The position numbers and the translations under genes are program-made. Shown in pieces: positions 823-19,776 of a stretch of DNA of 20,000 nucleotides; the stretch's first letter is position 1, and every line of letters begins with the position of its first letter. Origin of the DNA: an uncultured virus (IMG/VR IMGVR_UViG_3300037808_001064) (Duplodnaviria > Heunggongvirae > Uroviricota > Caudoviricetes); the IMG/VR virus record IMGVR_UViG_3300037808_001064, one strand, 5' to 3'. The notes under the pieces were generated by a model that was not told the DNA's origin, made no database searches, and saw only the letters and a list, made by a program, of their open reading frames with translations.

Positions 823-2577
823 CTATTGAATACTTTTCATCAGTGATCGGATCTCGCTCAGGCCCGTGAATATACCACTATCAGGAGAAAACATTCCACT
901 GCAAACGCCAAGTAGTTCTCCAGCAGGCGTGAAGAGCCCCCCTCCGGAGCGACCAGTGGCGTGCCGGCCGGAACAGACGAGAGAAGATGGGCCAGTGAAC
1001 TTATTGATACTCAGGAGCTTACAGTCTGAGCGGATCTGGGGCCCAGCGTGATCAAATCCGTACGAAACGAGCGGAGATCCTGTCGGCGGAACCTCATTGG
1101 CCAATGGAGCATACGCGATAAATGTGGTGTTCCCGGTCACTTTAAGAATCGCCAAGTCTGTTGGTGTCGGCAAGAGGGCCACCATCTCAGCTGGGTATTC
1201 TGTCCCGGTGTTCGGGTCGTAGACTGACAGTGTTTTGTGTTTTCGGAACACATGAGCACAGGTCAGGATGTAGGCGACACCACCTTCTGACTTGACCACC
1301 GTCCCACTGCCAGCGTCACCGTTGCCATCTGAGGACCTGGCATGAACTCGGACGGACACCATAGACGCACTCATGGTCTTTTGACTGTCTTGTGGATTCA
1401 GGTCTCGCTCAATGCCTGCAAGAAGGCGATTGAATACCGACGCTACCCTGTACCCCCACTGGTATTTAGGAGACGCGACTGTGGGCCCATCATGCAAGAT
1501 GTGGTATTCACCGTCACGAAGAACGCCCACCTGGAATGCTGGGTACAACCCCACCCCGTTTTTTCTGCCTTCGCGTGTTCCGCGGTCAATCACTTCGTAT
1601 GTCATTTTTGATCGCTCATTTGCCGTCCACTGCCGGCATGCAGCACACCCATCGAAGTGGTAGAACAGAAGGACAGGCGTCTCGTGAGCCTTTACCTCTT
1701 CGGTCAAGACAGGGGCAGACACGGTCATCGGCACGAACGTGTGGAACGATCTCTTGACTGGCTGGTCAGCTGGGTCGTCCGTCCATAGCCACACCTCGTC
1801 GTGCTCCACCATGTCGAGCCCTTCGATCTCGTGATAAGGCGACACCACCTTGGATAGGCCGGCGAACTTGCCCGCGACCATCAGCTCTGTCAGCAGCTCC
1901 GGGTACAAGTAGGCCAGACCGATCGAGATGTGATACTTGCTGGGGTCAACGTCCCGAACGTCTCGATGCTGGACGATGACGGATCCAGCTGCGATCCGGC
2001 CGGCGACGACGGCCTCCTGAACATGCTGTCTGGCCTTCTTGACCATGTCGATGTCGATCTCGAACCCATAGGCACGCTTGGCACCGGACTCAACGGCGCG
2101 AATCGACCACTCAGCGATACCACAACCAAACTCACCGACTGTGTCATAAGGGCCGATGTCGGCAATGCGGATGCCGGTGTCCATATGGCCGGAGGGTGTG
2201 GGGGATTGGCCGACTTCTTTGAGTGCGGCCTTTATCGCGTCAGCTGCCTTCACTGTGGCAGAATGCCGGGCTGCTGACTTCATGGACTTCCCCTGTGACA
2301 TGTACTCAGCCTTCCATCCATAAATGTTGTCACACATGTTGCAGGGACAGCGAACGAACCTCTTCCGCCGGCCGACACCTTTGTTTCTCCCACGACTGTA
2401 CGACTCAAGGTCGATGTTGGCCGTCTTGTTGTTCTCCGGCCACTTCTGCATCCGAGCAATGCGACCATCCGGTGTCCGAATCTGACTCCGTGAGTGTGGC
2501 ATGGTGACAAGAATAAGGCCCAAGATTAACGTGAGCCAGATTCCAAGTGCGACTATGCTCCGTTTTCTCTCGTTCAT
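823..2577 (-). CDS. Membrane-anchored or exported multidomain protein: class I SAM methyltransferase (FAM173-like) + thioredoxin-like CxxC domain + trypsin-like serine protease
   Basis: N-terminal hydrophobic stretch IVALGIWLTLILGLILVTM. MTase motifs SPTP...GEFGCG...YGFEID...AYLYPEL...VVS. Thioredoxin-like PVLLFYHFDGCAAC. Trypsin motifs GSGTVV, ILTCAHV (His), DLAIL (Asp), GRSGGGLF (Ser). Start placed at ATG 2577 (TAATG overlap with the holin stop); the ORF track start is 2592. Confidence 0.8.
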   Translation of the reverse strand: MNERKRSIVALGIWLTLILGLILVTMPHSRSQIRTPDGRIARMQKWPENNKTANIDLESYSRGRNKGVGRRKRFVRCPCNMCDNIYGWKAEYMSQGKSMKSAARHSATVKAADAIKAALKEVGQSPTPSGHMDTGIRIADIGPYDTVGEFGCGIAEWSIRAVESGAKRAYGFEIDIDMVKKARQHVQEAVVAGRIAAGSVIVQHRDVRDVDPSKYHISIGLAYLYPELLTELMVAGKFAGLSKVVSPYHEIEGLDMVEHDEVWLWTDDPADQPVKRSFHTFVPMTVSAPVLTEEVKAHETPVLLFYHFDGCAACRQWTANERSKMTYEVIDRGTREGRKNGVGLYPAFQVGVLRDGEYHILHDGPTVASPKYQWGYRVASVFNRLLAGIERDLNPQDSQKTMSASMVSVRVHARSSDGNGDAGSGTVVKSEGGVAYILTCAHVFRKHKTLSVYDPNTGTEYPAEMVALLPTPTDLAILKVTGNTTFIAYAPLANEVPPTGSPLVSYGFDHAGPQIRSDCKLLSINKFTGPSSLVCSGRHATGRSGGGLFTPAGELLGVCSGMFSPDSGIFTGLSEIRSLMKSIQ

Positions 2578-2783
2578 TACTCTCGTTTCCATGTGTGAGT
2601 TTTCGCGGCTTCTTTACCGTTGTCCGCAATCCCTTGCCCAATCAGGTAAGCCATTATTGTGTTGACGATGTTAGTGGCCTGATCCTCAGTGAGACCGAGG
2701 CCATCCGAAAAGATGATGATAAGGGCAGCGGTCAAGGCCGCGTAGAACTTCTTTGAGTTGAAAAGCTGCTTGAAGATGTTCAT
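2577..2783 (-). CDS. Putative holin
   Basis: 68 aa with two hydrophobic segments (SKKFYAALTAALIIIF; IVNTIMAYLIGQGIAD) and a charged C-terminus (KEAAKTHTWKRE). Resembles the SRKFW..-type small phage holins. Confidence 0.65.
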   Translation of the reverse strand: MNIFKQLFNSKKFYAALTAALIIIFSDGLGLTEDQATNIVNTIMAYLIGQGIADNGKEAAKTHTWKRE

Positions 2784-2785
2784 CG

Positions 2786-3682
2786 TTACTGCTCCGTGTA
2801 TTTGCCTTTACCAGTCCACACAGCGTGCCGGTTCCCGATTGTCATTGTCCCGTTCACATCGAACAGGCCGTCATCATCCGGTGGCGTCGGTTCATCCGGA
2901 TCCGGTGGTGTCAGACCCAACGGTGGGCCATAGTATTTCTGAGTCCGCTTCTTGTCTGCCGGCTGCAGTCGCGTGACGTTCGGGTTCATGAACGGACGCA
3001 TGATAGACGTGCCGGAGTTCGCGTGTGAGAAGCCCATCGTGTGGCCGGTCTCATGAATAATGGTCCCGATCAAATAATCGATCGACCAGTTCCGCCTGTC
3101 GTATTTTTGCCAGTGGGAATGTACTCGCCGGCTGCCGTTCGACAATAGTGCAATTGCCAGTGTGCTTCCGCCGAGTCTCTCCGACCACGTCGGGACATGT
3201 GCGGCATCGTAGTCGTCGATCATCACCAGGTTCACACCACATGTGTCGTTCCAGTTCTGCAGAGCAGTGTCCCACGCCTTCTTTGTGTCCTCCTCATCGA
3301 GGCCCTGAAGAGCGCGAAAGCGAAGTGCGAAGGTGACTGGGGTTTCCGGGTTCGGCCATGTGCGAGTGCCGTTGGAGATGTTCAGCTCTTCGGACTCATT
3401 ACTGGCCAGGTAGTCCGGGCAGTCGCAGACCCTCTCGTGTCCGTGAGAGTTCCTGCGAAACATCAGACTGTCGACGGTGAACCGGCCAAACTCCTGGTCC
3501 TCCTCCAGCTCAGCCGTCATCTGATACGAGCTGACTGCCCGTTTGAATATCCGCGAGTTGATGTCCAACTCTTGCACCTTAAACCACGATGATCTTCCAT
3601 CGTACTCAGAGTGAAAGTGCCCGAGCTTGTACAGCTCTCGCCTGGATACCTCTTCTTTCGGGGTCCATACGTGCGCCACCAT
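2786..3682 (-). CDS. Matrixin-like (M10A) zinc metallopeptidase with PG-binding-like prodomain and cysteine switch
   Basis: Metzincin motif HETGHTMGFSH (HExxHxxGxxH) and Met-turn SIMRP. RVCDCPD resembles the MMP cysteine switch PRCGxPD. N-terminal LYKLGHF...AVSSYQ...L..D..FG..T resembles PG_binding_1. Pro/Asp-rich linker before a short C-terminal tail. No signal peptide visible. Confidence 0.85.
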   Translation of the reverse strand: MVAHVWTPKEEVSRRELYKLGHFHSEYDGRSSWFKVQELDINSRIFKRAVSSYQMTAELEEDQEFGRFTVDSLMFRRNSHGHERVCDCPDYLASNESEELNISNGTRTWPNPETPVTFALRFRALQGLDEEDTKKAWDTALQNWNDTCGVNLVMIDDYDAAHVPTWSERLGGSTLAIALLSNGSRRVHSHWQKYDRRNWSIDYLIGTIIHETGHTMGFSHANSGTSIMRPFMNPNVTRLQPADKKRTQKYYGPPLGLTPPDPDEPTPPDDDGLFDVNGTMTIGNRHAVWTGKGKYTEQ

Positions 3683-4239
3683 CAGTCACTCTCCGACAAT
3701 AACGCACGAGCCTCATCGACGGCCGCAACCAAAGCATCGCGGTCCTGATCCCCCTTCGCTGCCTCCATTGCAGCAACAAACGGTTTCAGCCATGGATCCC
3801 ACTGTGGTGACGCGAACTCTTCCAGCACAACCTCCAAAGTTGAATTGACCGAGTTGTAGGCGACTCCGAATGTCATCAGCGAAGGTGGGATCTTCAACGA
3901 GAACTTCAGGGTCTCGACCTGCTGATGAAACTTCGCCAGCTGGCCGATGTCCTCCATCGCGTCCTGAACAGCGCCGATCCGGGATGATCCGTCCGGGGGA
4001 GTGGGCCCTTCTGGATCACCCGAACCGACTGGCTTTCCATGCAGGTCAACGGCCTGCAGAGGAGAAAGCGTGAGTTTGCCGTTTGCTTTGGTAATCTGAA
4101 CGTAGTAGACGCCATCAGCGAAGGCGTCCGCACAGATTATGAGCGGGGCGGTTTTCGATACGGGCTCTTGTAATGCAGTGCCGGCAGGTATGCCCGATAA
4201 ACCTGCGAGAGCCAAGACGGTAAGGAAGTAGTACTTCAC
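3682..4239 (-). CDS. Hypothetical exported protein
   Basis: 185 aa, signal-peptide-like N-terminus MKYYFLTVLALAGLSG, Pro/Gly linker (DPEGPTPPDG), helical-looking C-terminus. Coupled to neighbours by GTGA and TGATG overlaps. Confidence 0.65.
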   Translation of the reverse strand: MKYYFLTVLALAGLSGIPAGTALQEPVSKTAPLIICADAFADGVYYVQITKANGKLTLSPLQAVDLHGKPVGSGDPEGPTPPDGSSRIGAVQDAMEDIGQLAKFHQQVETLKFSLKIPPSLMTFGVAYNSVNSTLEVVLEEFASPQWDPWLKPFVAAMEAAKGDQDRDALVAAVDEARALLSESD

Positions 4240-4718
4240 TGGTCCTCCCCCCGCAGCTCCTCGATCAATCCCTCCATTGCGGCAGCCGATGTGGCAGCAC
4301 CAGAATCAAGAGATGCCTGATAGGACCGGCGAGCGTAGGAGTCACGCAGGATGTTCCGCTCACGGCGAGAAATCTTGCCGCCAGTGGGGTTCTTCTTGCG
4401 GGTGATGTTCTGCTTGGTTTTCAATTTCGAAATCCGCCACAACTGCTCTTTGTCGTCAGCAGTGGGATTTCGCGACCGATCAGAAAGCCGGCTGGAATCC
4501 TGAAGACCGCCGGAGCTGTCCTTGCACATGGCAATCATCTGCTTGATGCCAGTGAAAATTGAGATCAAGGTGCCCGGGTCAAAGAACTCCTCTGATATTC
4601 CGTTACCGGGCGTCTGCCCAACGAAATTGTTCAGCATTACCGCAGTACTGGTTTGATCGTGACTCATCTCTACCTCCGCTTCAAAAAGGTGGGTTTCATC
4701 GAACCACAATTCTTTCAT
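4236..4718 (-). CDS. Hypothetical phage protein
   Basis: 160-aa ORF coupled by TAATG to the upstream gene. An alternative start (MSHDQ, ATG at 4667) has a strong GGAGG SD. Confidence 0.65.
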   Translation of the reverse strand: MKELWFDETHLFEAEVEMSHDQTSTAVMLNNFVGQTPGNGISEEFFDPGTLISIFTGIKQMIAMCKDSSGGLQDSSRLSDRSRNPTADDKEQLWRISKLKTKQNITRKKNPTGGKISRRERNILRDSYARRSYQASLDSGAATSAAAMEGLIEELRGEDQ

Positions 4719-8209: not shown

Positions 8210-8722
8210 TTAAATATCTTCAAGTGCATGTTCACGCCAAAATCGATCAAGAATGCGGAACGTAACCAGCTCCGCGGATCTTTTGCTGGGACAAAGCCAC
8301 CAATGCACATTGGGATATTTATCCATCTGCCACGAGATCATCGATCTCGGTATTGTCTTCGGATCCAGCTTGCTCCTCTTACACCCTTCCATGATTCGGC
8401 CGAGGTCAGCCTCAACAACCACCCATCCGCTTTCCAGTTCGTTCAGGCGGCACAGTTGCTTTTCAAATCGCGTCCGGTCAGCACCGACGCAGTTGTAAAG
8501 ATCCTCCATCGACTTGCGTTCAACAGCAACGCGATGCTGAATGCCCTCAATGGAGTAGTCGCCGGTTTTCAGTCCCAGGCGTTTAGTGCGCAGCACTATT
8601 GTTCCACGAGTCTTGTCATCCTTTGTGTCGGCAGGAATGTCCATGAAGTCAAAAGTACTCTGCTCTCTGGTGTCGATAATCAACACGTACGGCCGGGTGA
8701 CGAACTCCGTTTCCTTCGGCAT
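8210..8722 (-). CDS. ERCC4 (XPF/Mus81-type) structure-specific endonuclease
   Basis: Diagnostic motifs IIDTREQ, GDY, VAVERKSMEDL (GDxnERKx3D) and RFEKQLCRL...VVEAD. Confidence 0.9.
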   Translation of the reverse strand: MPKETEFVTRPYVLIIDTREQSTFDFMDIPADTKDDKTRGTIVLRTKRLGLKTGDYSIEGIQHRVAVERKSMEDLYNCVGADRTRFEKQLCRLNELESGWVVVEADLGRIMEGCKRSKLDPKTIPRSMISWQMDKYPNVHWWLCPSKRSAELVTFRILDRFWREHALEDI

Positions 8723-10014
8723 TAAATTGCTCCTGTGTAAAGCTCACTCAGAAAAGTCTTTCGGTCATCAAGTTTGCTCTTCAGAATCTGACGATTCAGG
8801 ACACCCAGCTGGCCAATACTCAAGAGTATTTTTTTGGGGCGACTGAACCCGGTGTACACGAGGTTGCGATCGTTAAGGCCACAGTCATCAACCAAATAGA
8901 TTGCAACAGGCCAGCCTGAGCCCTGCGTTGAGTGACAGGTCAGTGCGTAGCCGAGGACCACCTCTTTCTCCCAGCCAGGCTTTGTGTATTTCACAACACC
9001 GCCAGCATGTGAGACGTAGATGGCCTTGCCGAATGAGTCCAGGTTGCAAACGATTCCATCTTCGCCGTTGGCAACGTAGGTCGACCCATGATCCTTCTGC
9101 ATCCAATCGCCATCGAGGGTGTGCCATGTCGCACGATGCTTATTCTTTTTGCAGATGACTTTGTCCCCAAGGCGAAACGGACAGTTTGGTGTCTGCTGCC
9201 CATCCGGATTCAGTAGCTCCTGAAGTCGATGATTGACCGTCTTTCGGTCTAACTCTCCGGCGAGGTTTCTGGTGACAATCACCTGAACGTCCTTGATGGG
9301 ATTGAACCCACGAGCCTTCATCCGCTCCAACATCAAGTCCAGCGTCTCAAGAATTTGATGGCCTCGGAATCTCTCCAGGTGCTTATAGTTTTCAGGACCA
9401 TGGGGCCCAGCATCCGGGTCGAGATCTAACTTTGGGGAAGGCTCAATCTTTTCCCCCATGCGAATGCACTTGCAAACATGGGCGATCCGGCCGGCATAAC
9501 GATGGACCTCGGTGAGGTGGGCATGAGGGAACATCTGCGACTCAATCATGTCCTTGAGTGGCTTACCCTTCCCCACGGGGCTCAGCTGGTAATCGTCACC
9601 GATCATCACAACCTGACAGCCTGGCCGAATGGCGGCGAAGAGCCATGACCCCTCAGCGGCAGCGATCATTGATGTCTCGTCTACAAACACTCGATCCACG
9701 GGCAGGTGGCTTTTGTGGTTGTATTCGAACTCCCATCCCAGCCCGTCGTACCCAACCCGAGTTGGGATCAGACCGGAGTGAATTGTCTTTGCTCTCAAGT
9801 CGACTCCGCACTCACTGAATGCTTCCATCATCCTTTGAGCTGCCTTGCCAGTGGGCGCAAAACAAAACGTGGAAATTTCTGGTGTCCGCTTAACCAATTC
9901 AGCGAGTAATGTTGTCTTTCCTGTTCCCCCGCCCCCCGTCAGCAAGGAGAACCTCGAATTCTGAATTAGTGTGACTGCTTTCTCTTGGCTTTCTGTGAGT
10001 GTTAGCACTGGCAT
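8722..10014 (-). CDS. recD2: RecD2-like SF1B helicase, C-terminal motor half
   Basis: LTESQEKAV Q-motif, Walker A LTGGGGTGKTT, FAPTGKAA, TIHS, VDETSM, IGDDYQLSPVGKG, HLTEVHR, FRLGDKVI, NGEDG, LGYALTCHSTQGSGW, RNLVYTGFSR. Confidence 0.88.
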   Translation of the reverse strand: MPVLTLTESQEKAVTLIQNSRFSLLTGGGGTGKTTLLAELVKRTPEISTFCFAPTGKAAQRMMEAFSECGVDLRAKTIHSGLIPTRVGYDGLGWEFEYNHKSHLPVDRVFVDETSMIAAAEGSWLFAAIRPGCQVVMIGDDYQLSPVGKGKPLKDMIESQMFPHAHLTEVHRYAGRIAHVCKCIRMGEKIEPSPKLDLDPDAGPHGPENYKHLERFRGHQILETLDLMLERMKARGFNPIKDVQVIVTRNLAGELDRKTVNHRLQELLNPDGQQTPNCPFRLGDKVICKKNKHRATWHTLDGDWMQKDHGSTYVANGEDGIVCNLDSFGKAIYVSHAGGVVKYTKPGWEKEVVLGYALTCHSTQGSGWPVAIYLVDDCGLNDRNLVYTGFSRPKKILLSIGQLGVLNRQILKSKLDDRKTFLSELYTGAI

Positions 10015-10915
10015 CCCTTAGTTTCGTTGTGTAGTTGAAAATTAGTCGCTCATTGATGGCATCGTCCTTCATCGCCAGCCATTTTTCGCCGGCCACAGTC
10101 TTCACGTTTATGAGCTTGGCCCGGCGTGCCAGCTCAATCGCTTTCTTTGGTTTGATGTCAGAGCCAACAAGCCGCCTCAGTTCCTTGATGGCCTCCTTAA
10201 CGCTGAGCCATGTGCTCCCATCAGCCTGCTGAAGCAGATACCACAAGCAGACTGCCTGACGTTTCAGTTTGCGGGGATTGTGGCCACGAGACTTATAAAG
10301 CTCATCGCATCGAAGGAACCCAGCGGACGGATACTTTCTGATCAGCATCGTGAATGGGTCGTCCGCTATTCTGTCAAAGGCACAGACACCAAAATCGTCA
10401 ATGGCACACTGGACGACGTTCGAACCGAACCCCCTGCCTTTTAGCAGCTGGTTCAGCTCAATTGCGGTGTCCTCAAAAGCCTCAGCCTGAGTGACTATGT
10501 CGCTACAAACCTTAGCCTGCTCTGTGGAGATCCCTGTGATTTCACACACCGTCTCCAGGTCTCCCTTGAGTGTCGGCAGCGTTCTCTCAGGGCCAACGCG
10601 GGCAATGATCTTGTTCAGGCCAGCTGCCCCAATGCCGCACTTGTTGAAGATTTTTTTTTCAAGGTAGGCGACGAGCCCCGCAGCGGTCTTTGGCTTCTGC
10701 GCGACGAAGTTCAGAAACTTGAACTGCTTTCCGTGGTTCTCGTGGTCCTCCCAGTATCCCGAAAACCGGTACTCGACCGAGGGGATGAACGTGTCCCTCC
10801 CGGCCGCACCAACAATGACGGTTCCGTCCATCAGCATGCCGACACAGTATGTGCCTTCGTCGTTGGCCCATCGGCACTTCTGAAAGACGCCCGAAAGCTC
10901 TGTGGTCTTCCCCAT
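9899..10915 (-). CDS. recD2: RecD2-like helicase, N-terminal half (OB-fold + HhH domains) encoded as a separate ORF
   Basis: G.WEDHENHGKQFKF, AYLEKKIFNKCGIG (HhH), EITGIS, DRIADDPFTMLI....AGFLRCD and QQADGSTWL match the RecD2 N-terminal region. Overlaps the motor-half ORF by 116 nt in a different frame. Confidence 0.8.
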   Translation of the reverse strand: MGKTTELSGVFQKCRWANDEGTYCVGMLMDGTVIVGAAGRDTFIPSVEYRFSGYWEDHENHGKQFKFLNFVAQKPKTAAGLVAYLEKKIFNKCGIGAAGLNKIIARVGPERTLPTLKGDLETVCEITGISTEQAKVCSDIVTQAEAFEDTAIELNQLLKGRGFGSNVVQCAIDDFGVCAFDRIADDPFTMLIRKYPSAGFLRCDELYKSRGHNPRKLKRQAVCLWYLLQQADGSTWLSVKEAIKELRRLVGSDIKPKKAIELARRAKLINVKTVAGEKWLAMKDDAINERLIFNYTTKLRDASANTHRKPRESSHTNSEFEVLLADGGRGNRKDNITR

Positions 10916-11814
10916 CAGGACAACCTCAGAACAGGCTGGACCCTCTTGAACAGTTCCATCTCAGACCAGCCATCAGAGGCGACGTAACGGGCCAGTTCTT
11001 CCCACTGAGCCCCTTCGATCATCTCCTGAACGTGAGAGCCGTCAACGTCCCCGGCCGGAGGCGTGATGCCATACTGAGGCAACAGAGACTTCAGTTTCTG
11101 CATGTTGGCTATGGTGCCGAACATCTTCAGACAAATGTCGGCCGTGTCTTTTGCGTACCGACTGTTGTCTACTGGTTTTTGCGGAGTGACGCCCAGTTTG
11201 ATGGCTCGGTGAATCAGACAGGGGTCATCGTACGAAGCAGTGTTGTAGCCCACTCTCAGCCGGCCAGTGGCAACCATCCGGAACCAGGCGTCGACCAACT
11301 GCTTTTCATGTTCGCGATCCTCGGCCAGCCACACCTTTGGAACAGGATCGTTGAAGAAGCAGATCGACATGGCGACGATACGGCAGGTCCACGGACACTT
11401 CGACAGGTTTTTCCATGCCTGCAGATCTTCGTTGCCGTTTTCACAGTACTTCTTGAGTACAGTGTTGACGCCTTTGCGGTTCTTGCCGGCGATCTCTGCG
11501 TCCCAGACCTGCTGGGCATCCTCGGCATGAACACCGCTGTTGATGAAACTCTTTGCTGTGGATTCACTCTTGAGAATGTCGGCCATGTTTAACGGCTGCT
11601 TGTCATACACAGGCACGTCAGGCTTCGGGGCATCCGGATAGGTCTCAACGTCGTATGCCCAGGCACAACCACCTTCTGGCGGCTCCCAGTTGGAATCCAT
11701 GACTTCGAACTTGAAGTCATCTTTAGGTTGCTGCTCGACCTGCTCAGGTTCTTCTGCGTGTATCGAATCTCGGTCAATACCGGTCGTGCTCACTGTCTGA
11801 TCGAATAGTCCCAC
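10915..11814 (-). CDS. DnaQ-like/RNase H-fold 3'-5' exonuclease (DEDDy)
   Basis: ExoI WAYDVET, ExoII VGYNTASYDDP, ExoIII YVASD. Start reassigned to GTG at 11814 (GGGGA SD upstream), because the ORF track's 5' extension to 11928 runs through a terminator. Confidence 0.8.
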   Translation of the reverse strand: MGLFDQTVSTTGIDRDSIHAEEPEQVEQQPKDDFKFEVMDSNWEPPEGGCAWAYDVETYPDAPKPDVPVYDKQPLNMADILKSESTAKSFINSGVHAEDAQQVWDAEIAGKNRKGVNTVLKKYCENGNEDLQAWKNLSKCPWTCRIVAMSICFFNDPVPKVWLAEDREHEKQLVDAWFRMVATGRLRVGYNTASYDDPCLIHRAIKLGVTPQKPVDNSRYAKDTADICLKMFGTIANMQKLKSLLPQYGITPPAGDVDGSHVQEMIEGAQWEELARYVASDGWSEMELFKRVQPVLRLS

Positions 11815-11839
11815 AATTACATCCCCGTTCTGTGATGAC

Positions 11840-11874
11840 AAAAAAAGAGCCAGGCCTTGCCGTGAAGACCTGGC
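11840..11874 (-). terminator. Intrinsic (Rho-independent) terminator between the SSB and exonuclease genes
   Basis: Minus strand GCCAGGTCTT-CACGGC-AAGGCCTGGC followed by TCTTTTTTT: a 10-bp stem (one G-U pair) plus U-tract. Confidence 0.75.
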
Positions 11875-11975
11875 GTGTGAAATTGATCCCCGTTCTGGCC
11901 ACACAAGGCGGGGACACCCTTGATCCAATACGACTCAGTCACGAACGCGAAAACTGTCCGCGTGGCAGACTTTGG

Positions 11976-12584
11976 CTACACGTCGTCCGCGTCGTCACCT
12001 GCATCCACAGGAGTCGACATCAGAACGGTGTTAGGATCCTTCGGCACATCTTCAACCTTGGCGTGGTTACATGGCCACACGTTGTTGTTATAGACGATAT
12101 AGAACGGCTTATCCTTGTCGTTCTTGTTCGGACGAGTAGACACCTGGCAGATGGCATTAGTGCCTCTCAGGCGTTCGTACATTTCCTGAGTGATAGTGAA
12201 CGACTCCTGACCAAAGGCCTCGTCACCGATCACGCCAAAGCCGAACAGCAGGCAGACAATGGCCTTCCGGTCCTTGTCTTCCAGCGGCTCCATGCCTTCG
12301 CTGAAATCCTTCCAGTTGCATGGAGTCATCAGGCGGATGGCGTGACGCATACTTTTCCCGATCTCAGAATCGTGCTCTCCCGCGAGAACCTTCATGCTAA
12401 GAATAACTTCCGGAATGATTGTCTTGTCACCCTCTGATTCCAGGCTGAACTTCACGTCTTCTACCTGGAAGTGGAACAGGCCCTTTTTGCAAACGCCAAG
12501 ACTGGCGTCGTTCACAGAATCCTCGGTGACAGTACTCGTGTCGACGGTTGAGTTCTCTGTGGAGAATGGATCGTTTTCACTCAT
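11976..12584 (-). CDS. Putative phage single-stranded DNA-binding protein (DUF669-like)
   Basis: KGLFHFQVEDV...VILSMKVLAGEH...GK pattern and an acidic C-terminal tail (PVDAGDDADDV). Adjacent to a Sak4-like ATPase, the usual context. Confidence 0.6.
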   Translation of the reverse strand: MSENDPFSTENSTVDTSTVTEDSVNDASLGVCKKGLFHFQVEDVKFSLESEGDKTIIPEVILSMKVLAGEHDSEIGKSMRHAIRLMTPCNWKDFSEGMEPLEDKDRKAIVCLLFGFGVIGDEAFGQESFTITQEMYERLRGTNAICQVSTRPNKNDKDKPFYIVYNNNVWPCNHAKVEDVPKDPNTVLMSTPVDAGDDADDV

Positions 12585-12736
12585 AGCTTCATCACTTTCT
12601 TGAGCCTCTTCAGCTCGTCAAAACTTGTTATCCATGTGGCTGGATACCCAAATACATCCAGCCATTCTTTTTTCGTTCGCTCCTCACCGCACAGTGCGAC
12701 CAGCCCTTGGAGCATCTCAGGCCAGTCTCGTTTTAT
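12581..12736 (-). CDS. Short -1-frame ORF, probable frameshift extension of the upstream ATPase (or a 44-aa gene from ATG 12715)
   Basis: Manual translation: IKRDWPEMLQGLVALCGEERTKKEWLDVFGYPATWITSFDELKRLKKVMKL*. It fills the intergenic gap exactly and its TGA overlaps the SSB ATG (ATGA). Not in the ORF track. Confidence 0.6.
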   Translation of the reverse strand: MKRDWPEMLQGLVALCGEERTKKEWLDVFGYPATWITSFDELKRLKKVMKL

Positions 12737-14154
12737 TTTTTTGCCAGATCCCGTTTAGCCTGCAGTGACCACAAGGCCTTCCGCAAATCCTCCAGCCCCT
12801 CCGGTGTCAGGTCAACGAGCTTGTCCCCTTCCTTTCCTCGTTTAGCGATTGCTTTGAGTGATTGTTCCTTGCTCATTCCAAGAGCCTTCATCTGGCTACG
12901 CACCAGCTCAACTTTTTCCTCCGGTTTCAGCGTGGCCAGAGGAGTTTCCACATCAGAAGAATGCCCATCCTTGGGCGAGGCAGTCGTTGCCTTTCCTTCG
13001 GGCTCTTCCTGAGCCTCTACAGCGGCCTTCGCTGGTTCCGTGGTCGAGTCCGTGCTCTTGTCATCAGCCGGAGCTGAAACAGGTTCAGGAGTGGACGAGG
13101 GATCCGGAGCTTCGACGGGTGCTTCCTTCTTTGGTTCAGCAGCTTTCCTCTTTGCCGCGGAGTTTCGTTCTGCAGCGTCTTTCACGTCTGCCAGGCGAGC
13201 GTTCTTTGCCTCTTCGGCCTCCCGTTCATCCTGAGCGATCTGTGCGCGGAGCTGCAACTTTTCGTCGTCGTTCAAAGTTTCGACGGGAGCAATTTCCGAT
13301 CCTTTCAGCTTTTTGTAATTCGGCGGCTTCGCTATATAGTCCCGAATTTTCGTAGCTGACAGGCCGTGGATGGCCGGCGGGAGAATCGGCTTGATTTCCC
13401 CGGTGTCGGCATTGGCATGCACCAGCCGGGACTTGCCGATCGGAGGAGTGATCAGGGCGATCGGAGCGTCAATCTGCTTGCCAGTCTTCGGATCCACCGG
13501 CCGGTTCAGAACGAACACGACATCTGCCATTTTTCTGAACACATCAGAGCCCTTGGCCTTCATCTCACCAGACGGCTTGCCGGCCTTCCAGACCTGCCCC
13601 ATGTGCATGGTGTAGGCAAACGTCTCGATCTTCCCAGAAAGGACGCCAACCATCATGTCGATCATCGTCTTAACGTCGCCCCAGGCCAACGCAGTCATTT
13701 TGTCGTACTGGCCAGATGTGCGGCCGAACTCTTTCGGGTGCGACACAACGTAGTCATAGGCTCCCTGCTGGATCTCATTGATCGGATCCACTGAAATGAC
13801 GGTGTATGTTCCCGGATCAATCCCCTTCAGCAGGTCACGAAACCAAACAAAACACTCGACGGGGGACGGGATCCCTGAAGAATTCTTGGTCTTCACCTCG
13901 TCGTACATGACGAGGTGCTTCTTGAACGGCAAGTTGAATGCCGAACTCGACGACTCAATGTCGATCTTCAGTGTGTTACGGGCATCGATCATGTCGCACG
14001 CCAGCGACTTCCCTGAGCCGAACGGGCCCGTTACGCCAATCGTTCGAATCTTCAGTGGTTCGCCGTTTACTCTGCCCCAGAACGGCTCTCCGGGCTTGTC
14101 TGTCCACTCAACCTTCTGACCAATCCTCTTCCACGACAGCTCATTCTTACCCAT
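12733..14154 (-). CDS. AAA_24/Sak4-like P-loop ATPase (putative phage recombinase) with Ala/Pro/Glu-rich linker and C-terminal helical domain
   Basis: Walker A IGVTGPFGSGKS, TLKIDIE, Walker B-like VISVDP, MADVVFVL. Start reassigned to ATG 14154 (AGGAAAGG upstream); the track start at 14373 overlaps csrA. Confidence 0.7.
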   Translation of the reverse strand: MGKNELSWKRIGQKVEWTDKPGEPFWGRVNGEPLKIRTIGVTGPFGSGKSLACDMIDARNTLKIDIESSSSAFNLPFKKHLVMYDEVKTKNSSGIPSPVECFVWFRDLLKGIDPGTYTVISVDPINEIQQGAYDYVVSHPKEFGRTSGQYDKMTALAWGDVKTMIDMMVGVLSGKIETFAYTMHMGQVWKAGKPSGEMKAKGSDVFRKMADVVFVLNRPVDPKTGKQIDAPIALITPPIGKSRLVHANADTGEIKPILPPAIHGLSATKIRDYIAKPPNYKKLKGSEIAPVETLNDDEKLQLRAQIAQDEREAEEAKNARLADVKDAAERNSAAKRKAAEPKKEAPVEAPDPSSTPEPVSAPADDKSTDSTTEPAKAAVEAQEEPEGKATTASPKDGHSSDVETPLATLKPEEKVELVRSQMKALGMSKEQSLKAIAKRGKEGDKLVDLTPEGLEDLRKALWSLQAKRDLAKK

Positions 14155-14317
14155 ATCAATATCAACCTTTCCTACGACGGGATTGCCCCGCCAGTCTTCG
14201 GGATAAACACAACTTACCACTCTCAGATCCGCCGGAGGCACATGGTACGCCCGGACTTTACACTCACAGTTTTTTGATGCGCCCCTGCTCAAACCCAATG
14301 GACATTCCGTCAGGATC

Positions 14318-14521
14318 TTATCCGCTAGAATCTCGCTCCGGGAGAACGCACACAGGACCAGCTGGTCTGGCATCCAATAATTCTCCTCTCATAATCACGG
14401 CATCCTCTGGTGCCTCAATGCCAATCTTCACCTTGCCCGCGTGGACAGCAAGTACCCTGAAGGTGACGTTAAGGTCGGGAATAACAATTGTTTCCTCACG
14501 CTTTCTGCTCAGAACTAACAT
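14318..14521 (-). CDS. csrA: Carbon storage regulator CsrA/RsmA-family RNA-binding protein
   Basis: MLVLSRKREETIVI....VTFRVLAV..GKVKIGIEAPEDAVIMRGEL aligns by eye with CsrA (MLILTRRVGE...VRIGVNAPKEVSVHREEI). L2, L4, R6 and the R44-equivalent are retained. Confidence 0.9.
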   Translation of the reverse strand: MLVLSRKREETIVIPDLNVTFRVLAVHAGKVKIGIEAPEDAVIMRGELLDARPAGPVCVLPERDSSG

Positions 14522-14872: not shown

Positions 14873-15904
14873 CTATGTTGCGGTGTTAATCGGTCCTTCG
14901 GAAACGATCGTCTCGCCCTTCGGACGGTATGTGATGTCGCCACCGTTCGCAGAGGATCGCAAGCTCTTCAAGGCGTCGGCGTAGGTGGCGGATTTGACCT
15001 TTTTGCTGGCCGCAGACTTCACGGTGATTGTCACGTCGCCGGCCGACTCGTCATCAACAACCAGAGTTGCATCAGACGCCGTGCCCCATGTGGTCCCCTG
15101 AACAGTCAATAGTCCAGTCGTTTTATCCACAGCAATTACGGCAGCTGAATCGGCGTCATTCCGATTGTGTTTCAACATGAAAATCAGGTTCGTGTTATTC
15201 GCTAAGGTTCCGAGTCCTGTGATGACAATCTGCCACTGATCACCTTCCGTTACGTTGATCACATTGACCGACAGTGGAGAAGCGACATCTTCAGATACCG
15301 CCTGAACACCGGCAACGATGGATGCGATGTTAGCGGGGCTTAATCCACCAGCATTGTCCGCGATTGCTTCCAAAGAATCTGTAAGCTCACTGTACGCACC
15401 AGCACCAGCACCAGAGGTTTTGATCTCTGCCAAAGCTGTAGCGTCCGCAACTTGTTTACCCGCCATCAAACCCAACCACTCAGCGAGTATAGTTATTCCA
15501 GCGAATACTGAAGCTGCTGGAGGAACCACAGTGTTCGCTCCGACCGCAACCGTAGCCCCATCATACCCCACCAGCGGATGTGGAACGCCTTCAATGACCC
15601 CTGCAGTGTAACTGCCCTTGACCGACACTGCTCCGAACTGGGACGCAACGGCAGCATCAGGAGCATCCACTGTGTAAAGGTTGCCCGACCCTACCTGCCG
15701 AATAGCCCCATCAGCGTGTGCCGTATCGTCAGCCGCTTTATCACTGAGTGAAGAGATCGCCACTGACGATCCGCCTGCACGATAGACCGACAATGCCAGA
15801 CCAGCTTCAGCAGCGAGCAGATTAACCTTTGCTGTGCCGTCGGTGTCGAATGCTCTGAAGAACATAATTGGATCGGACGAACCGACTAAAATCGCATGGC
15901 TCAT
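14873..15904 (-). CDS. Phage structural (tail/baseplate-associated) protein
   Basis: 343 aa, Ala/Gly/Thr/Val-rich, ATGA-coupled to the LamG gene. The C-terminal beta-rich region is loosely BppU-like. Function inferred from context. Confidence 0.55.
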   Translation of the reverse strand: MSHAILVGSSDPIMFFRAFDTDGTAKVNLLAAEAGLALSVYRAGGSSVAISSLSDKAADDTAHADGAIRQVGSGNLYTVDAPDAAVASQFGAVSVKGSYTAGVIEGVPHPLVGYDGATVAVGANTVVPPAASVFAGITILAEWLGLMAGKQVADATALAEIKTSGAGAGAYSELTDSLEAIADNAGGLSPANIASIVAGVQAVSEDVASPLSVNVINVTEGDQWQIVITGLGTLANNTNLIFMLKHNRNDADSAAVIAVDKTTGLLTVQGTTWGTASDATLVVDDESAGDVTITVKSAASKKVKSATYADALKSLRSSANGGDITYRPKGETIVSEGPINTAT

Positions 15905-18900
15905 AACATCCCCCCTGATAATGATAGTCGTCTGCGTCGTGTTTGGATGATGGCTGATGAAACCACAGGGCAGTCGAAATAGTTTCTGGTGCTGGCTAGG
16001 GCTTTGATTTCGTCGAGGGATAGGGCACGGTCCCAGAGGTAAACATCGTCCGTAGTTCCCTCCATATACGAAGAAACCAGTGGATCAATACTATGAGCGA
16101 TTCCAAAGTCCTTGTTTTGAGTCGAAGGATTAGTAGCTGTTGTCCCTGATCCATCACTAACCCCATCTACGAATAATTCGGCAGTCCAACTCCCAGTGCT
16201 TCCAGAACGAACCACTGCTACGTGATACCATTGATCAGTGCTTAGAGTTGTAGATCCCGTCTTCACTACAGTTCCACCCCACGTAATTGACAACTTCCCT
16301 GCTGTCCTATTCACCTCAAAACTGAACTGAGCTAGTCCACTTTGTGGGATGTCTGAAATGATATGATCCTGCCCCCCTGCGGTAGTGGCTATTTTTAACC
16401 ACGTGGCTGCGGAGGCTTCTCCTTGAAGCGAGATAGCTCCAACATCCACATAGTCATTAGTCCCATCATACTCAATAGCCCGCGTACCGCCGCTATCGGT
16501 ATCAGCAACCCAGTCGCCAGTTGTCATATTCGTCAGCGTGCCGACGTTTCCATTCCCGCTGAAATCCATAGCGTTCAGGGTTGCGTTACCCCAGTCATCA
16601 TAACTGGGTACTATTGATAGTACCGAGCCTTTAGTGTTTGGGACTTCGACTTCGTACTCGGAAGCGAGTAATGCGACTTCGGCAGCGGTGAGGGCACGGT
16701 TGAAGACTCGCGTATCCCGTAATGAGCCTGATGTATATTTCCCGTTGTACCCACGCATGAAGTTGTTGATCACAAATCGGCGTGTGGCTGCATCAATAGT
16801 TGACGACAGCCCGTCGATTTCATTCACTCCGTCAATGTAGAGATCCCCCGTTTCGTCAGAGTGATTTACGTAGGTCAAAAGATGCCACTCGCCGTCTGCG
16901 ACCAGCGTGGTTGATTTGATGTTGTGTTGCCATCCGCCGTTGTAATGCAGATATTCGCAGTACCCGCTTCGCAGGATGAACTGAGCATAAAGGTCGCCAT
17001 TGTCTCTTCCACAAATGGCCTTGCCCCAGTCTCCATTTTGATCAGTGTCTGTTCCTTTGTACCAAACTGACACAGTCCAATCTTCGATGTCGTTGAAACT
17101 TAAAACACCTCCCCCTGTTGAGGTACTATTGTCAGGTGTATCCACATAATCATCCGTCCCATCAAAAACTATTTCATCATCTTCACCGACATAAGCCCCA
17201 TTAGTCAGAGTGCCGTGGTTTCCGTTTCCGGATTCATCGCTGATGTCGTTGTTCCAGAGAGTGGTGACTTCAGTGGCGGAAAGGGCACGGTCGAGGAGTC
17301 GAAAATTGTCAACTTCCATATCTACATACCCACTTCCCCCGTCATATCCAATAGATAAGTCGTATGAGGTAACACTAGGTATGGCCCCAGCGGCTACCGA
17401 CCCTACGAGAGACCCGTCGAGATAAAACACAGCGTTAGTGGAATCCCATGTGAACGTCGCAACATGCCATTCGCCGTCGTCTACTACAGACGAGGATGTC
17501 GCCGTGGCTTTGCTTGCTCCATCATAAATATAGCCCATCAGCTTTCCTGTTGACCCATTGGCCCTGATTGCGATATACCCACCCTCATCTGTTATGATTC
17601 GTTTGTATGAAGTGAGACTATCGGTTGTCTTAAACCTTAAACTGATTGTGCCTGCGGCAGCGTTCAGAGGTCGGCCCAGATTGATTTTGTCCCCGACCCC
17701 ATCCAGATCAAAATAACCATCGGAATTTACAAACGTATCGCCAACCAGAGTCCCATCATTACCCATCGGACTCTGATCGGTCACGCCCGTTTTACCATCC
17801 AGTTGAAGCACAGTACCGGGCAACACTCCAACATCGTGACGTGATGGATGCAGGGCTAATACTTCGCCACCGAGTAATCCAACTGGGCGATAACCTCTGA
17901 CGCCTTTGTTGTAGAGCAGTATGGCTTCGGCTTCAGTGACCGGCCTTTGGATAATGCGGAAATCGTCAATCTCGCCATCAAGTTCATTATCATACGTGTA
18001 AGTGTCTGTTGAGACTTTCCCGATAATCGGTCCCGCTGTGGTCTGTGTCGGAGCAGTCAAAAAGTTGTTATTTTCCGACCATCCTCCGGGATCAACGCCG
18101 TCGATGTAGATGGACGTTGCCGCTGCCGTGTCATCCACTGATATGACTACGTGATGCCATTGCCCAGCAGTGAAAATCCCAGAGGCTTTGTACTTGAACG
18201 ATGAAGCCCCAGAGGTGTGGCATTGAGCATAAAGTCCGCTTCCATTTCGATATAACCATGCACCATTCAGACTGGTCGTGACCGCTGTTCCCTCACCCCA
18301 TATGGATTCGTTTCCTGCCGCTACACTATTGAATTTTACCCAGAACGAACACGTCCACTGTGTACTATTCACTACGGGAGTAGTCGGCATCAGTACGTAA
18401 TCATCAGTCCCATTAAACACGAATTCCGTATCCGTACTGTTCGCTGCAATATCGGTTCCCGTGAACGTCCCATAGTTGCAGTGATTGCTCAAATCCCGCT
18501 CACCACTAGCAGCCTCAAGATGCAGGACCGTATCAGGAATCTGTCTCACTGGTAGAGGAGGTTCGTATCCGGGGACACCTTCGTAGAGGGAGAGGACTTG
18601 TGCGGCGGTGATGGCGACATTAAATAGCCTAACTTCGCCCACATCCATGGCCTTGAACGCGGTCCCTGATCCTCCGACCTCGATATCATATGCAGATCCC
18701 GCAGCAAGCATTGCACCACAAGCCACAGATCCCTCTTGGACGCCGTCAACGTAGATTCGCAGCGTCGTTGAGTCCCACGTAACAGCGACATGGTGCCACA
18801 GTCCGTCTAAGGTGTCTGAGGTTCCCGGGGCTGTGCGGTTGCCAGTATCGTACAAGATCGCGTTTACTTTGCCGCTAGTAGACTGAATCAAACGGAAGTG

Positions 18901-19776
18901 TCCCGGTGCGTCACCAATGATAATGTCGTTCAGCGTAACGTCAGTGCCGCGAAGCCATAACGAAAGGGTCATAGCTGCCGGGTTATACAGTTTCCCCAGC
19001 AGTATCGAGTCATCAACTCCATCAAAAACGTATCGCCTTCCAGTGACACCCATTCCTCCGTTGTATGCCGCTGGATCCTGCGTTCCACTCTGATCAACTA
19101 ATCCCGTCTCGGGTCTCAGGTGCAAGACAGTCCCAGCGATATCTGGACGGGCAGTGGCGTTGTAGAGTTCGCGGGCTTCTGTGGAGGTGATGGCTCTGGA
19201 GAATGCCCGGAACGATTTGATCTTCCCAGTGAGGTTTCCGTATCCTACTTGTGCCCCAATGTGTAATGGCCACGGTGATGTAGGATCGGTGCCAGCAGAG
19301 GAAGCCCCAGCCGTGGCCGCAACTTCTTCCCCGTTGATAAAGAGCTTCGCGTAGCTGTCTGCCTGCTTCTTAGTGAGGACCAGATGGTAGAAAACATCGT
19401 CAGCATAACCGGGGATCGTGTATTGAATATGCTCCAGGCCGGACTTAATGTATACGTAAATGACTCCGGCCCACGACTGGCACATAACACCGTTAGCGTA
19501 TGCTTCCTGTGCAAAAAGCACCTCGCCTGTTGCTGTGTGGTCATCCAGTGAAAAGAAAAGAGAATAGGAAAAGTCTGTCCCCTGGTCGTCCTTATAGTCA
19601 GCCACGGAGACATAATCATCCGTACCATCGAACACGAACGCACCGTCAACAATGCTCATCCCGCCATTCAGCGTACCATCATTCCCATAGTTCGTCTGAT
19701 CTGTAATACCAGTTGCGGCTTGCAGATTTAGAACCGTATCTTTGAGTTGACGTGTTTCAGAGCAGATCGTCACCAT
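15901..19776 (-). CDS. Multi-LamG (concanavalin A-like jelly-roll) protein, putative receptor-binding/tail fibre protein
   Basis: Six repeats of D.S..GN.GTL...FDG.DDY/V...W(H/Y)H(V/L)....(Y/F)(I/V)DG...R.(F/W)..A(L/I)T/S..E. Arg-rich C-terminal tail RRRRLSLSGGML. Confidence 0.85.
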   Translation of the reverse strand: MVTICSETRQLKDTVLNLQAATGITDQTNYGNDGTLNGGMSIVDGAFVFDGTDDYVSVADYKDDQGTDFSYSLFFSLDDHTATGEVLFAQEAYANGVMCQSWAGVIYVYIKSGLEHIQYTIPGYADDVFYHLVLTKKQADSYAKLFINGEEVAATAGASSAGTDPTSPWPLHIGAQVGYGNLTGKIKSFRAFSRAITSTEARELYNATARPDIAGTVLHLRPETGLVDQSGTQDPAAYNGGMGVTGRRYVFDGVDDSILLGKLYNPAAMTLSLWLRGTDVTLNDIIIGDAPGHFRLIQSTSGKVNAILYDTGNRTAPGTSDTLDGLWHHVAVTWDSTTLRIYVDGVQEGSVACGAMLAAGSAYDIEVGGSGTAFKAMDVGEVRLFNVAITAAQVLSLYEGVPGYEPPLPVRQIPDTVLHLEAASGERDLSNHCNYGTFTGTDIAANSTDTEFVFNGTDDYVLMPTTPVVNSTQWTCSFWVKFNSVAAGNESIWGEGTAVTTSLNGAWLYRNGSGLYAQCHTSGASSFKYKASGIFTAGQWHHVVISVDDTAAATSIYIDGVDPGGWSENNNFLTAPTQTTAGPIIGKVSTDTYTYDNELDGEIDDFRIIQRPVTEAEAILLYNKGVRGYRPVGLLGGEVLALHPSRHDVGVLPGTVLQLDGKTGVTDQSPMGNDGTLVGDTFVNSDGYFDLDGVGDKINLGRPLNAAAGTISLRFKTTDSLTSYKRIITDEGGYIAIRANGSTGKLMGYIYDGASKATATSSSVVDDGEWHVATFTWDSTNAVFYLDGSLVGSVAAGAIPSVTSYDLSIGYDGGSGYVDMEVDNFRLLDRALSATEVTTLWNNDISDESGNGNHGTLTNGAYVGEDDEIVFDGTDDYVDTPDNSTSTGGGVLSFNDIEDWTVSVWYKGTDTDQNGDWGKAICGRDNGDLYAQFILRSGYCEYLHYNGGWQHNIKSTTLVADGEWHLLTYVNHSDETGDLYIDGVNEIDGLSSTIDAATRRFVINNFMRGYNGKYTSGSLRDTRVFNRALTAAEVALLASEYEVEVPNTKGSVLSIVPSYDDWGNATLNAMDFSGNGNVGTLTNMTTGDWVADTDSGGTRAIEYDGTNDYVDVGAISLQGEASAATWLKIATTAGGQDHIISDIPQSGLAQFSFEVNRTAGKLSITWGGTVVKTGSTTLSTDQWYHVAVVRSGSTGSWTAELFVDGVSDGSGTTATNPSTQNKDFGIAHSIDPLVSSYMEGTTDDVYLWDRALSLDEIKALASTRNYFDCPVVSSAIIQTRRRRLSLSGGML

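Follow-up and report, generated by a model that had tools for sequence, protein, structure and literature searches.

In insertion sequences of the IS1 and IS3 families, a heptamer A_AAA_AAC or A_AAA_AAG near the stop of orfA, combined with a downstream structure, gives rise to a fusion protein. The frameshift in dnaX of Escherichia coli (tau/gamma) terminates the protein early, yielding the shorter gamma, with an upstream Shine-Dalgarno-like sequence as an additional stimulator; the heptamer of phage lambda is G_GGA_AAG. In its available part, a recoding review gives A_AAA_AAG as the dnaX heptamer, places the programmed frameshifts of tailed phages mostly in tail-chaperone and capsid genes, and describes the G/GT-type shift as conserved across phages of low sequence similarity, in some cases in the other frame direction, and certain tailed-phage shifts as apparently independent of a stimulatory signal (PMC5009743). 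As for phage recombination genes, the accessible sections of two papers state that sak4 genes usually lie upstream of genes for single-stranded DNA-binding proteins (SSB), including DUF669, that a Red-beta-type C-terminal domain is common to Sak4, RecT and Erf members (PMC8093625), and that an AAA/Sak4-like protein and a DUF669 SSB form the 'Healer' repair pair (PMC13687109). Here we describe the 3′ end of a Sak4-like ATPase gene in a 20,000-nucleotide (nt) stretch of DNA from an uncultured virus of the Caudoviricetes (IMG/VR record IMGVR_UViG_3300037808_001064), the whole of which is referred to as the window. A programmed −1 ribosomal frameshift at the ATPase stop, adding a small conserved domain to the recombinase, is the best explanation for this locus, with a probability that we put at about 0.8 from sequence comparison.

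The ATPase open reading frame (ORF) lies on the minus strand at 12733..14373, its TAA included, and encodes 546 amino acids (aa). It matches PF13479 (AAA_24) over residues 111-291 with 29.7 bits, against a curated cut-off of 27, and has homologues. Its Walker A motif is GPFGSGKS, of which GSGK is invariant or almost so in the homologue alignment, and a low-complexity linker precedes a C-terminal helical domain. The 3′ end of the ORF reads CTG GCA AAA AAA TAA (stop at 12735-12733), in which the last base of GCA and the two AAA codons make up a slippery heptamer, A_AAA_AAA (12742-12736, minus strand), abutting the zero-frame stop. The 8-nt spacer that follows, UAAAACGA (12735-12728, minus strand), holds the TAA and leads into a stem-loop at 12727-12698 on the same strand, a candidate frameshift stimulator that is the centroid structure of the computed fold. 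Its 9-bp stem pairs the 5′ arm GACUGGCCU (12727-12719) with the 3′ arm GGGCUGGUC (12706-12698) around a 12-nt loop (12718-12707). The −1 frame is open from 12736 to 12584 and encodes the peptide IKRDWPEMLQGLVALCGEERTKKEWLDVFGYPATWITSFDELKRLKKVMKL (IKRDWPEML...KVMKL); with its TGA this 51-codon extension spans 12736-12581 on the minus strand and corresponds to a predicted three-helix domain of the form WP...GYP(A/P)TW. The TGA (12583-12581) and the ATG of the downstream gene (12584-12582) share an ATGA overlap (12584-12581, minus strand).

The conserved Trp-Pro that opens this domain is encoded upstream of the sole early ATG of the −1 frame, which lies three codons further on within the hairpin loop (12715-12713, minus strand). 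Between the upstream −1-frame stop and this ATG there is no ATG, GTG or TTG, and relatives have Leu, Met, Ile or another residue at its position. The first-pass annotation of this DNA had called the gene a Sak4-like ATPase, a name that the AAA_24 score above the cut-off bears out. The heptamer, 8-nt spacer, hairpin and stop that it reported are exact to the base, as are the 51 open codons of the −1 frame and their ending in an ATGA overlap. Its remark that the only early ATG sits in the hairpin loop and lacks a Shine-Dalgarno sequence also holds, there being no Shine-Dalgarno-like sequence at that place.

In the proposed mechanism, a ribosome translating the Sak4-like ATPase mRNA would reach A_AAA_AAA with two Lys-tRNAs on AAA AAA. 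The stem-loop 8 nt downstream would resist unwinding, and a fraction of the ribosomes would slip back by one base, read ATA AAA CGA GAC TGG CCT..., bypass the TAA and add 51 residues. Two products would be made, the 546-aa ATPase and a 597-aa ATPase carrying the C-terminal three-helix domain. What we infer here is the slip itself, its efficiency and the partner of the domain.

The comparison covered 111 loci, 25 of them reached through the ATPase alignment, one through a genome search and 85 through three back-translated motif patterns on viral contigs. Scanning all stop-to-stop frames with a profile gave 46 domain occurrences, representing 40 distinct loci (numbered here with the prefix L; L001 is the window's own contig). 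A long same-strand ORF of 278-629 stop-to-stop codons ends near the domain in all 40. The upstream proteins group into an AAA_24 cluster (18 loci), a RecT/ERF-like cluster (20 loci; among 16 scanned, Pfam identified RecT in five and ERF in one) and one pair. Relative to the recombinase, 32 loci have the domain in the −1 frame, eight in the +1 frame and none in the zero frame, a bias against equal thirds (binomial p = 1.8e-9) in a direction that ordinary 4-nt overlaps likewise favour.

In 23 of the 40 loci, an X_XXY_YYZ heptamer is found in frame with its end 0-12 nt ahead of the recombinase stop, and in 15 it lies directly at the stop; among control ORFs, namely the remaining ORFs of 150 codons or more in the same loci, 5 of 322 have such a heptamer (Fisher p = 5e-21). 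It occurs in 13/18 loci of the AAA_24 cluster and 10/20 of the RecT/ERF-like cluster. Eight types are represented: A_AAA_AAG (seven loci), A_AAA_AAC (six), G_GGA_AAC (four), A_AAA_AAA (two), and G_GGA_AAG, G_GGA_AAA, C_CCT_TTC and C_CCG_GGT (one each). The C-terminal residues of the recombinases differ (KK, KN, GN etc.), whereas the nucleotide pattern is preserved down to the wobble base of the codon that precedes it. Fourteen of the 23 heptamer loci, against 1 of the 17 heptamer-less ones, lack any start codon (ATG, GTG or TTG) ahead of the conserved Trp in the domain frame (p = 6.5e-4), and L005 has none in its entire 62-codon frame. At the stops of AAA_24 relatives without the domain (L007, L018/L021 and L025), a strict heptamer was not found.

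Most of the 23 heptamer loci have a strong stem beginning 2-11 nt past the heptamer, and the stem sequences are unrelated. The 50 nt after the heptamer have a mean folding z of −2.30 (n = 23), compared with −0.06 at other ORF ends (n = 100; Mann-Whitney p = 1.2e-8), −0.40 in internal windows of the same genes (n = 69; p = 4e-7) and −0.45 where the same domain occurs without a heptamer (n = 17; p = 1.7e-4). The last control is the most important one: encoding the domain does not by itself produce the stem. L009 has a perfect 12-bp stem and L038 reaches a z of −5.5; the heptamer loci without a strong stem are L034, L047, L079 and L029. The Trp-Pro codons lie in the 3′ arm of the stem in L009 and in the 5′ arm in the window; stem position therefore tracks the heptamer, not the protein. 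The window's own stem is common only to L001, L002 and L020, and the remaining hairpins are not alignable. The structural signal is significant only across the family and not for the window alone.

Several lines of evidence concern the −1 peptide itself. A tblastn search with the 51 residues matched directly 3′ of the ATPase stop in most related loci, and the aligned extension peptides have the common pattern WPxxLxxLVxxxGxxxVWxxGLxxLGYPPTW...E...L, with conservation detectable down to below 30% identity. Against L002, the −1 frame has a pN/pS (ratio of nonsynonymous to synonymous changes) of 0.25, and neither of the two differences between the window and L002 ahead of the internal ATG changes a residue in the −1 frame. 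A hidden Markov model (HMM) search of 1.84 billion representatives retrieved 522 clusters at E ≤ 1e-3 (63 at E ≤ 1e-10), and the 150 HMM matches listed are almost all 39-111 aa long. The AlphaFold (AF2) model of the domain, built from 75 sequences, has a predicted local distance difference test (pLDDT) score of 77.8 and helices at 7-16, 18-29 and 39-48, and the modelled fold begins immediately after the proposed slip site. Judged by these comparisons, the −1 peptide is a real conserved domain under purifying selection.

Known families and structures offered little for comparison. Pfam and PHROG contain no family matching the extension peptide, and the domain model found no clear relative in fold searches, the best Foldseek E being 7.1 and the best VIA-align Z 4.2 among 48,161 chains. 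A tblastn search of 50,697 phage records with P0001 and P0023 (P numbers denote protein sequences of this analysis) had no matches, so that no cultured phage in that set was found to carry the domain; of 401 genomes searched in the phylum of G001, in which L019 lies, the domain HMM matched one. In many other phages the domain is clearly a free small protein. Fusions to the neighbouring gene product are rare: the domain is fused to the N-terminus of a protein with an oligonucleotide-binding (OB) fold in P0150, and follows a recombinase C-terminal region in frame in P0135 and perhaps P0054. The latter two were rejected as proof of in-frame fusion: P0135 has a doubtful N-terminus, and P0054, at 40% identity to the RecT-like protein of L034, aligns poorly over the ~20 residues ahead of the domain. 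Fused proteins of greater length were also sought in a word-indexed search, without a match, which is weak evidence.

We favour ribosomal −1 frameshifting because the three canonical elements co-occur and co-vary. The design of heptamer, hairpin and start-less −1 ORF recurs in many uncultured phages behind AAA_24 and RecT-like recombinases; the heptamer, found in 23/40 loci, is not universal. The comparative evidence thus supports the central proposal of the first-pass annotation, that a programmed −1 frameshift probably extends the ATPase and yields two isoforms.

A number of observations weigh against this conclusion. The stability of the window hairpin is close to that of shuffled sequence (z of 0.11, −0.24 and −0.92 for 86, 60 and 50 nt, respectively). 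Seventeen of the 40 loci have no heptamer nearby, and nine of the 23 heptamer loci have a possible start, for example GTGA in L017, TTGA in L020 and an ATG nine codons upstream of the domain in L013. The 40 loci share phylogeny and are not independent, and the domain, hairpin and heptamer could travel together as one module. The extension domain is in frame in none of the 21 annotated ATPase homologues, and the two long ORFs that do hold it in frame (P0054 and P0135) have odd junctions or N-termini. Furthermore, gene calling presents most members of the HMM family as small separate ORFs that have a start of their own ahead of Trp-Pro, which means that the domain needs no fusion.

These last observations bear on the alternative that survives best, namely that the 51-codon frame is an independent small gene, started at the ATG at 12715 or by reinitiation, once the ribosome has terminated at the TAA, on a near-cognate codon such as ATA, and that the domain is made free, with no fusion. 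It is consistent with the stand-alone relatives, as a Met stands immediately ahead of Trp-Pro in many of the HMM matches listed, with stop-start overlaps such as the GTGA of L017 and the TTGA of L020 and L044, and with the fact that a 4-nt overlap alone sets a downstream gene in the −1 frame. However, the window's ATG lies past Trp-Pro and inside the hairpin loop, with no ribosome-binding sequence to serve it. Start codons ahead of the domain are likewise missing from the 14 heptamer loci noted above and altogether from L005, and L005, L008, L010, L024 and L049 have GTA or CTA as the codon that overlaps the stop. An independent gene would also leave unexplained both the enrichment of the heptamer and the hairpins, which are absent where a start codon exists. 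We consider it unlikely. Some HMM matches begin only past Trp-Pro, as does the 44-aa call in the window (example P0034).

The heptamer-less loci are heterogeneous. An ATG of their own is clear in L042, L057 and L068; L033/L041 have C_CCT_TTT 27 nt upstream of the stop; and L072 has neither a start nor a heptamer. As a separate observation, L003 (4295-4311) and L030 (2095-2145), which have no canonical heptamer, contain GGGGGAG where the two frames overlap, and in L030 the Trp-Pro codons of the domain stand ahead of the recombinase stop. Among the eight loci with the domain in the +1 frame, no common shift motif was found except in L022, and most have distant upstream starts. In L022, on a viral contig (4480-4500), the ATPase ends CCC TTT TGA, with a T4 run against the stop, and the nearest upstream ATG in the domain frame is 34 codons ahead of the Trp. 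On this sequence, the T4 run could be a +1 slip site.

Slippage of RNA polymerase on the A7 run, adding an A to some transcripts, would lead to the same fusion protein by normal translation. The product would be identical, and homopolymers at which such slippage is conceivable exist in the window and L002 (A7) and in L020 (A8). Polymerase slippage normally needs runs of about nine, however, and 21 of the 23 heptamer loci have runs of at most six identical bases. Six loci use G_GGA_AAN, where polymerase slippage is not expected, and the conserved downstream hairpin fits slipping by the ribosome. This route thus appears highly improbable, and ribosomal frameshifting remains the preferred explanation.

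The length of the A7 run was compared among Logan contigs. In four of four sequencing runs (X1, perhaps from the source sample, along with X5, X6 and X8 from different samples and studies), the contigs span 12736-12742 with no gaps and no other letters, and no A8 was seen there; this evidence comes from assembled contigs at a depth of 2.5-12.7, not from raw reads. No RNA runs are listed among the sequencing runs that contain the window stretch. L002, an independent contig whose ATPase shares 87% protein identity, also has A7 followed by TAA, and all 21 annotated ATPase homologues terminate at or near the same stop. Because of this agreement among contigs, L002 and homologues, a homopolymer error hiding one long ORF is very unlikely and, as far as the contigs show, can be set aside. 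More generally, an artefact (a true A8 and one continuous ORF) or a chance −1 frame and hairpin from which nothing is made would accord with the commonness of homopolymer length errors and the statistically unremarkable window hairpin, and is scarcely credible given an A7 that recurs in three other samples and in L002, the shared stop of the homologues and a peptide conserved under purifying selection.

The gene downstream of the extension (11976..12584, minus strand) encodes a 202-aa protein predicted, from its model and a weak DUF669 match, to be an OB-fold, DUF669-like protein of ssDNA-binding type. The first-pass annotation had called it an SSB. An OB fold and an SSB-like character are fair descriptions, but the name SSB itself is unsupported, as Pfam SSB did not match and no Pfam family matched at E ≤ 0.01. 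DUF669 is weakly matched in 2 of 11 homologues of the downstream protein (best E 0.0011) and is the sole family at E ≤ 1. The AF2 model (pLDDT 78.4) has its best Foldseek matches in the OB-fold protein PrgE (8s4t/8s4s; E 3.9e-5 to 1.7e-4, TMt 0.54-0.59), followed by weaker matches to SSB, RPA and PriB. Both ends of the protein are acidic, with a DPF/DLF motif at the N-terminus and a tail at the C-terminus. Its translation had also been proposed to be coupled to the frameshift. Such coupling is possible in the window, where the two genes meet in ATGA, and ATGA-type overlaps are common in relatives; it is not general, since a gap precedes the downstream start in L009, L013 and L023.

The domain may serve as a protein-protein adaptor joining the recombinase to its cognate DUF669-type partner. 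This role is suggested because the domain lies between both genes and is found fused to an OB-fold protein in P0150 and after a recombinase in P0135 and perhaps P0054. Frameshifting would then set the ratio of tagged to untagged recombinase. A broader and more tentative reading, which we regard as possible but rather doubtful, is that of a shared recoding system in which unrelated recombinases (Sak4-like, RecT-like, possibly ERF) gain the same adaptor by a −1 shift at the stop, with the slip rate setting the ratio. The adaptor would dock on a DUF669-type partner, perhaps via the acidic DPF, as a portable, dosed coupling module that also exists free, partner-fused and possibly as a +1 version (L022).

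Acidic Phe motifs occur at several places in these loci: in the window (12560-12584, minus strand) and in L003, L005, L020, L033/L041, L009, L013, L018/L021 and L022. DPF or DLF stands at the N-terminus of the OB-fold protein, and HDPF near the C-terminus of RecT-like recombinases, where C_CCT_TTT falls within the HDPF codons. Some ATPases, and some extension peptides, end in IPF or VPF. Such motifs resemble the SSB C-terminal tip DDDIPF as given in the accessible part of one paper (PMC13687109).

At the other end of the ATPase gene, the ORF overlaps by 56 nt with that of a phage-encoded CsrA homologue of 67 aa (PF02599, E 1.6e-16; 14318-14521, minus strand). Met74 of the ATPase is invariant in the alignment and is the start of many homologues (region 14150-14373, minus strand). 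Five ATPase homologues have in common a Cys-rich N-terminal region, CPL..L...C.C...DLRV.SC.YP.DWRG. From these patterns, two start sites or a zinc-finger-like N-terminal extension are possible.

Seawater metagenomes are the source of the window, which as a whole is a phage-like contig. On its minus strand, a RecD2-like helicase is divided between two ORFs (8722-10915) that overlap by 116 nt, the second in the +1 frame. The first (9899..10915, 338 aa) has OB_YrrC and HHH_RecD2, and the second (8722..10014, 430 aa) has AAA_30, SH3_13 and UvrD_C_2, with a Walker A immediately past its ATG. The last ~38 residues of the first ORF resemble an out-of-frame reading of the second, and the split could reflect two proteins, a frameshift or an error. 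Further minus-strand genes (823-4718, 8210-8722, 10915-11928 and 15901-19776) encode a trypsin-like peptidase (589 aa), a matrixin-like metallopeptidase (298 aa), an ERCC4 nuclease (170 aa), a PolB-type 3′-5′ exonuclease (337 aa) and a 1291-aa protein with six Laminin_G_3 stretches. In the region of the proposed slip site (12300-13000), Rfam gave no matches at E ≤ 1.

If frameshifting is confirmed, many phage recombinases would have two isoforms that annotation has missed, as gene callers leave the domain out or annotate only a shortened ORF of 44 aa such as P0034. A very common orphan family of small ORFs, with its 522 clusters, would gain a context, as it always neighbours a recombinase gene and an SSB-like one. 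Sak4/DUF669 and RecT modules are described as recombineering and phage-editing tools in the available part of one source (PMC13687109), and a missing isoform could affect their activity. A full-text literature search, supplements excluded, found no published frameshift in phage recombinase genes. The word 'frameshift' and any intervening small domain are absent from the available parts of PMC13687109 and PMC8093625, the corresponding part of the recoding review contains neither 'recombinase' nor 'RecT' (PMC5009743), and the PRFect paper does not contain 'recombin' (PMC10885494).

In gene content, the locus is closest to 'Healer' Gp64/Gp63, where an AAA_24 recombinase likewise lies upstream of an OB-fold DUF669-type SSB, the same pair in the same order, although the OB-fold protein of the window matches DUF669 only weakly. 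The Red-beta-type domain, which binds lambda Exo and the SSB tail, is similarly a small helical accessory unit at the C-terminus of unrelated recombinases; in contrast, the domain that frameshifting would add is a further unit past that region and has no clear fold relative. With respect to the signal, dnaX of E. coli resembles the present locus in its A-rich X_XXY_YYZ heptamer with a stem-loop a few nt downstream and in deriving two products from one DNA-metabolism gene, and its A_AAA_AAG is the heptamer of seven loci here. Unlike in dnaX, the shift here would bypass a stop and add a folded domain. The orfA-orfB arrangement of IS1 and IS3 elements shares the heptamer near a stop and the fusion product, but there two large transposase halves are fused, whereas here a 50-aa accessory domain would be placed on a complete enzyme. 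The lambda-like G/GT tail chaperone also has its slip near a zero-frame stop, a C-terminal domain added and two proteins made in a set ratio, and L079 even has the lambda heptamer G_GGA_AAG; the gene class here is recombination and not tail assembly. Whereas certain tailed-phage shifts appear independent of a stimulatory signal, the hairpin is the rule in this family. The proposed mechanism is a textbook one, and its gene class, the phage recombinase, appears to be new.

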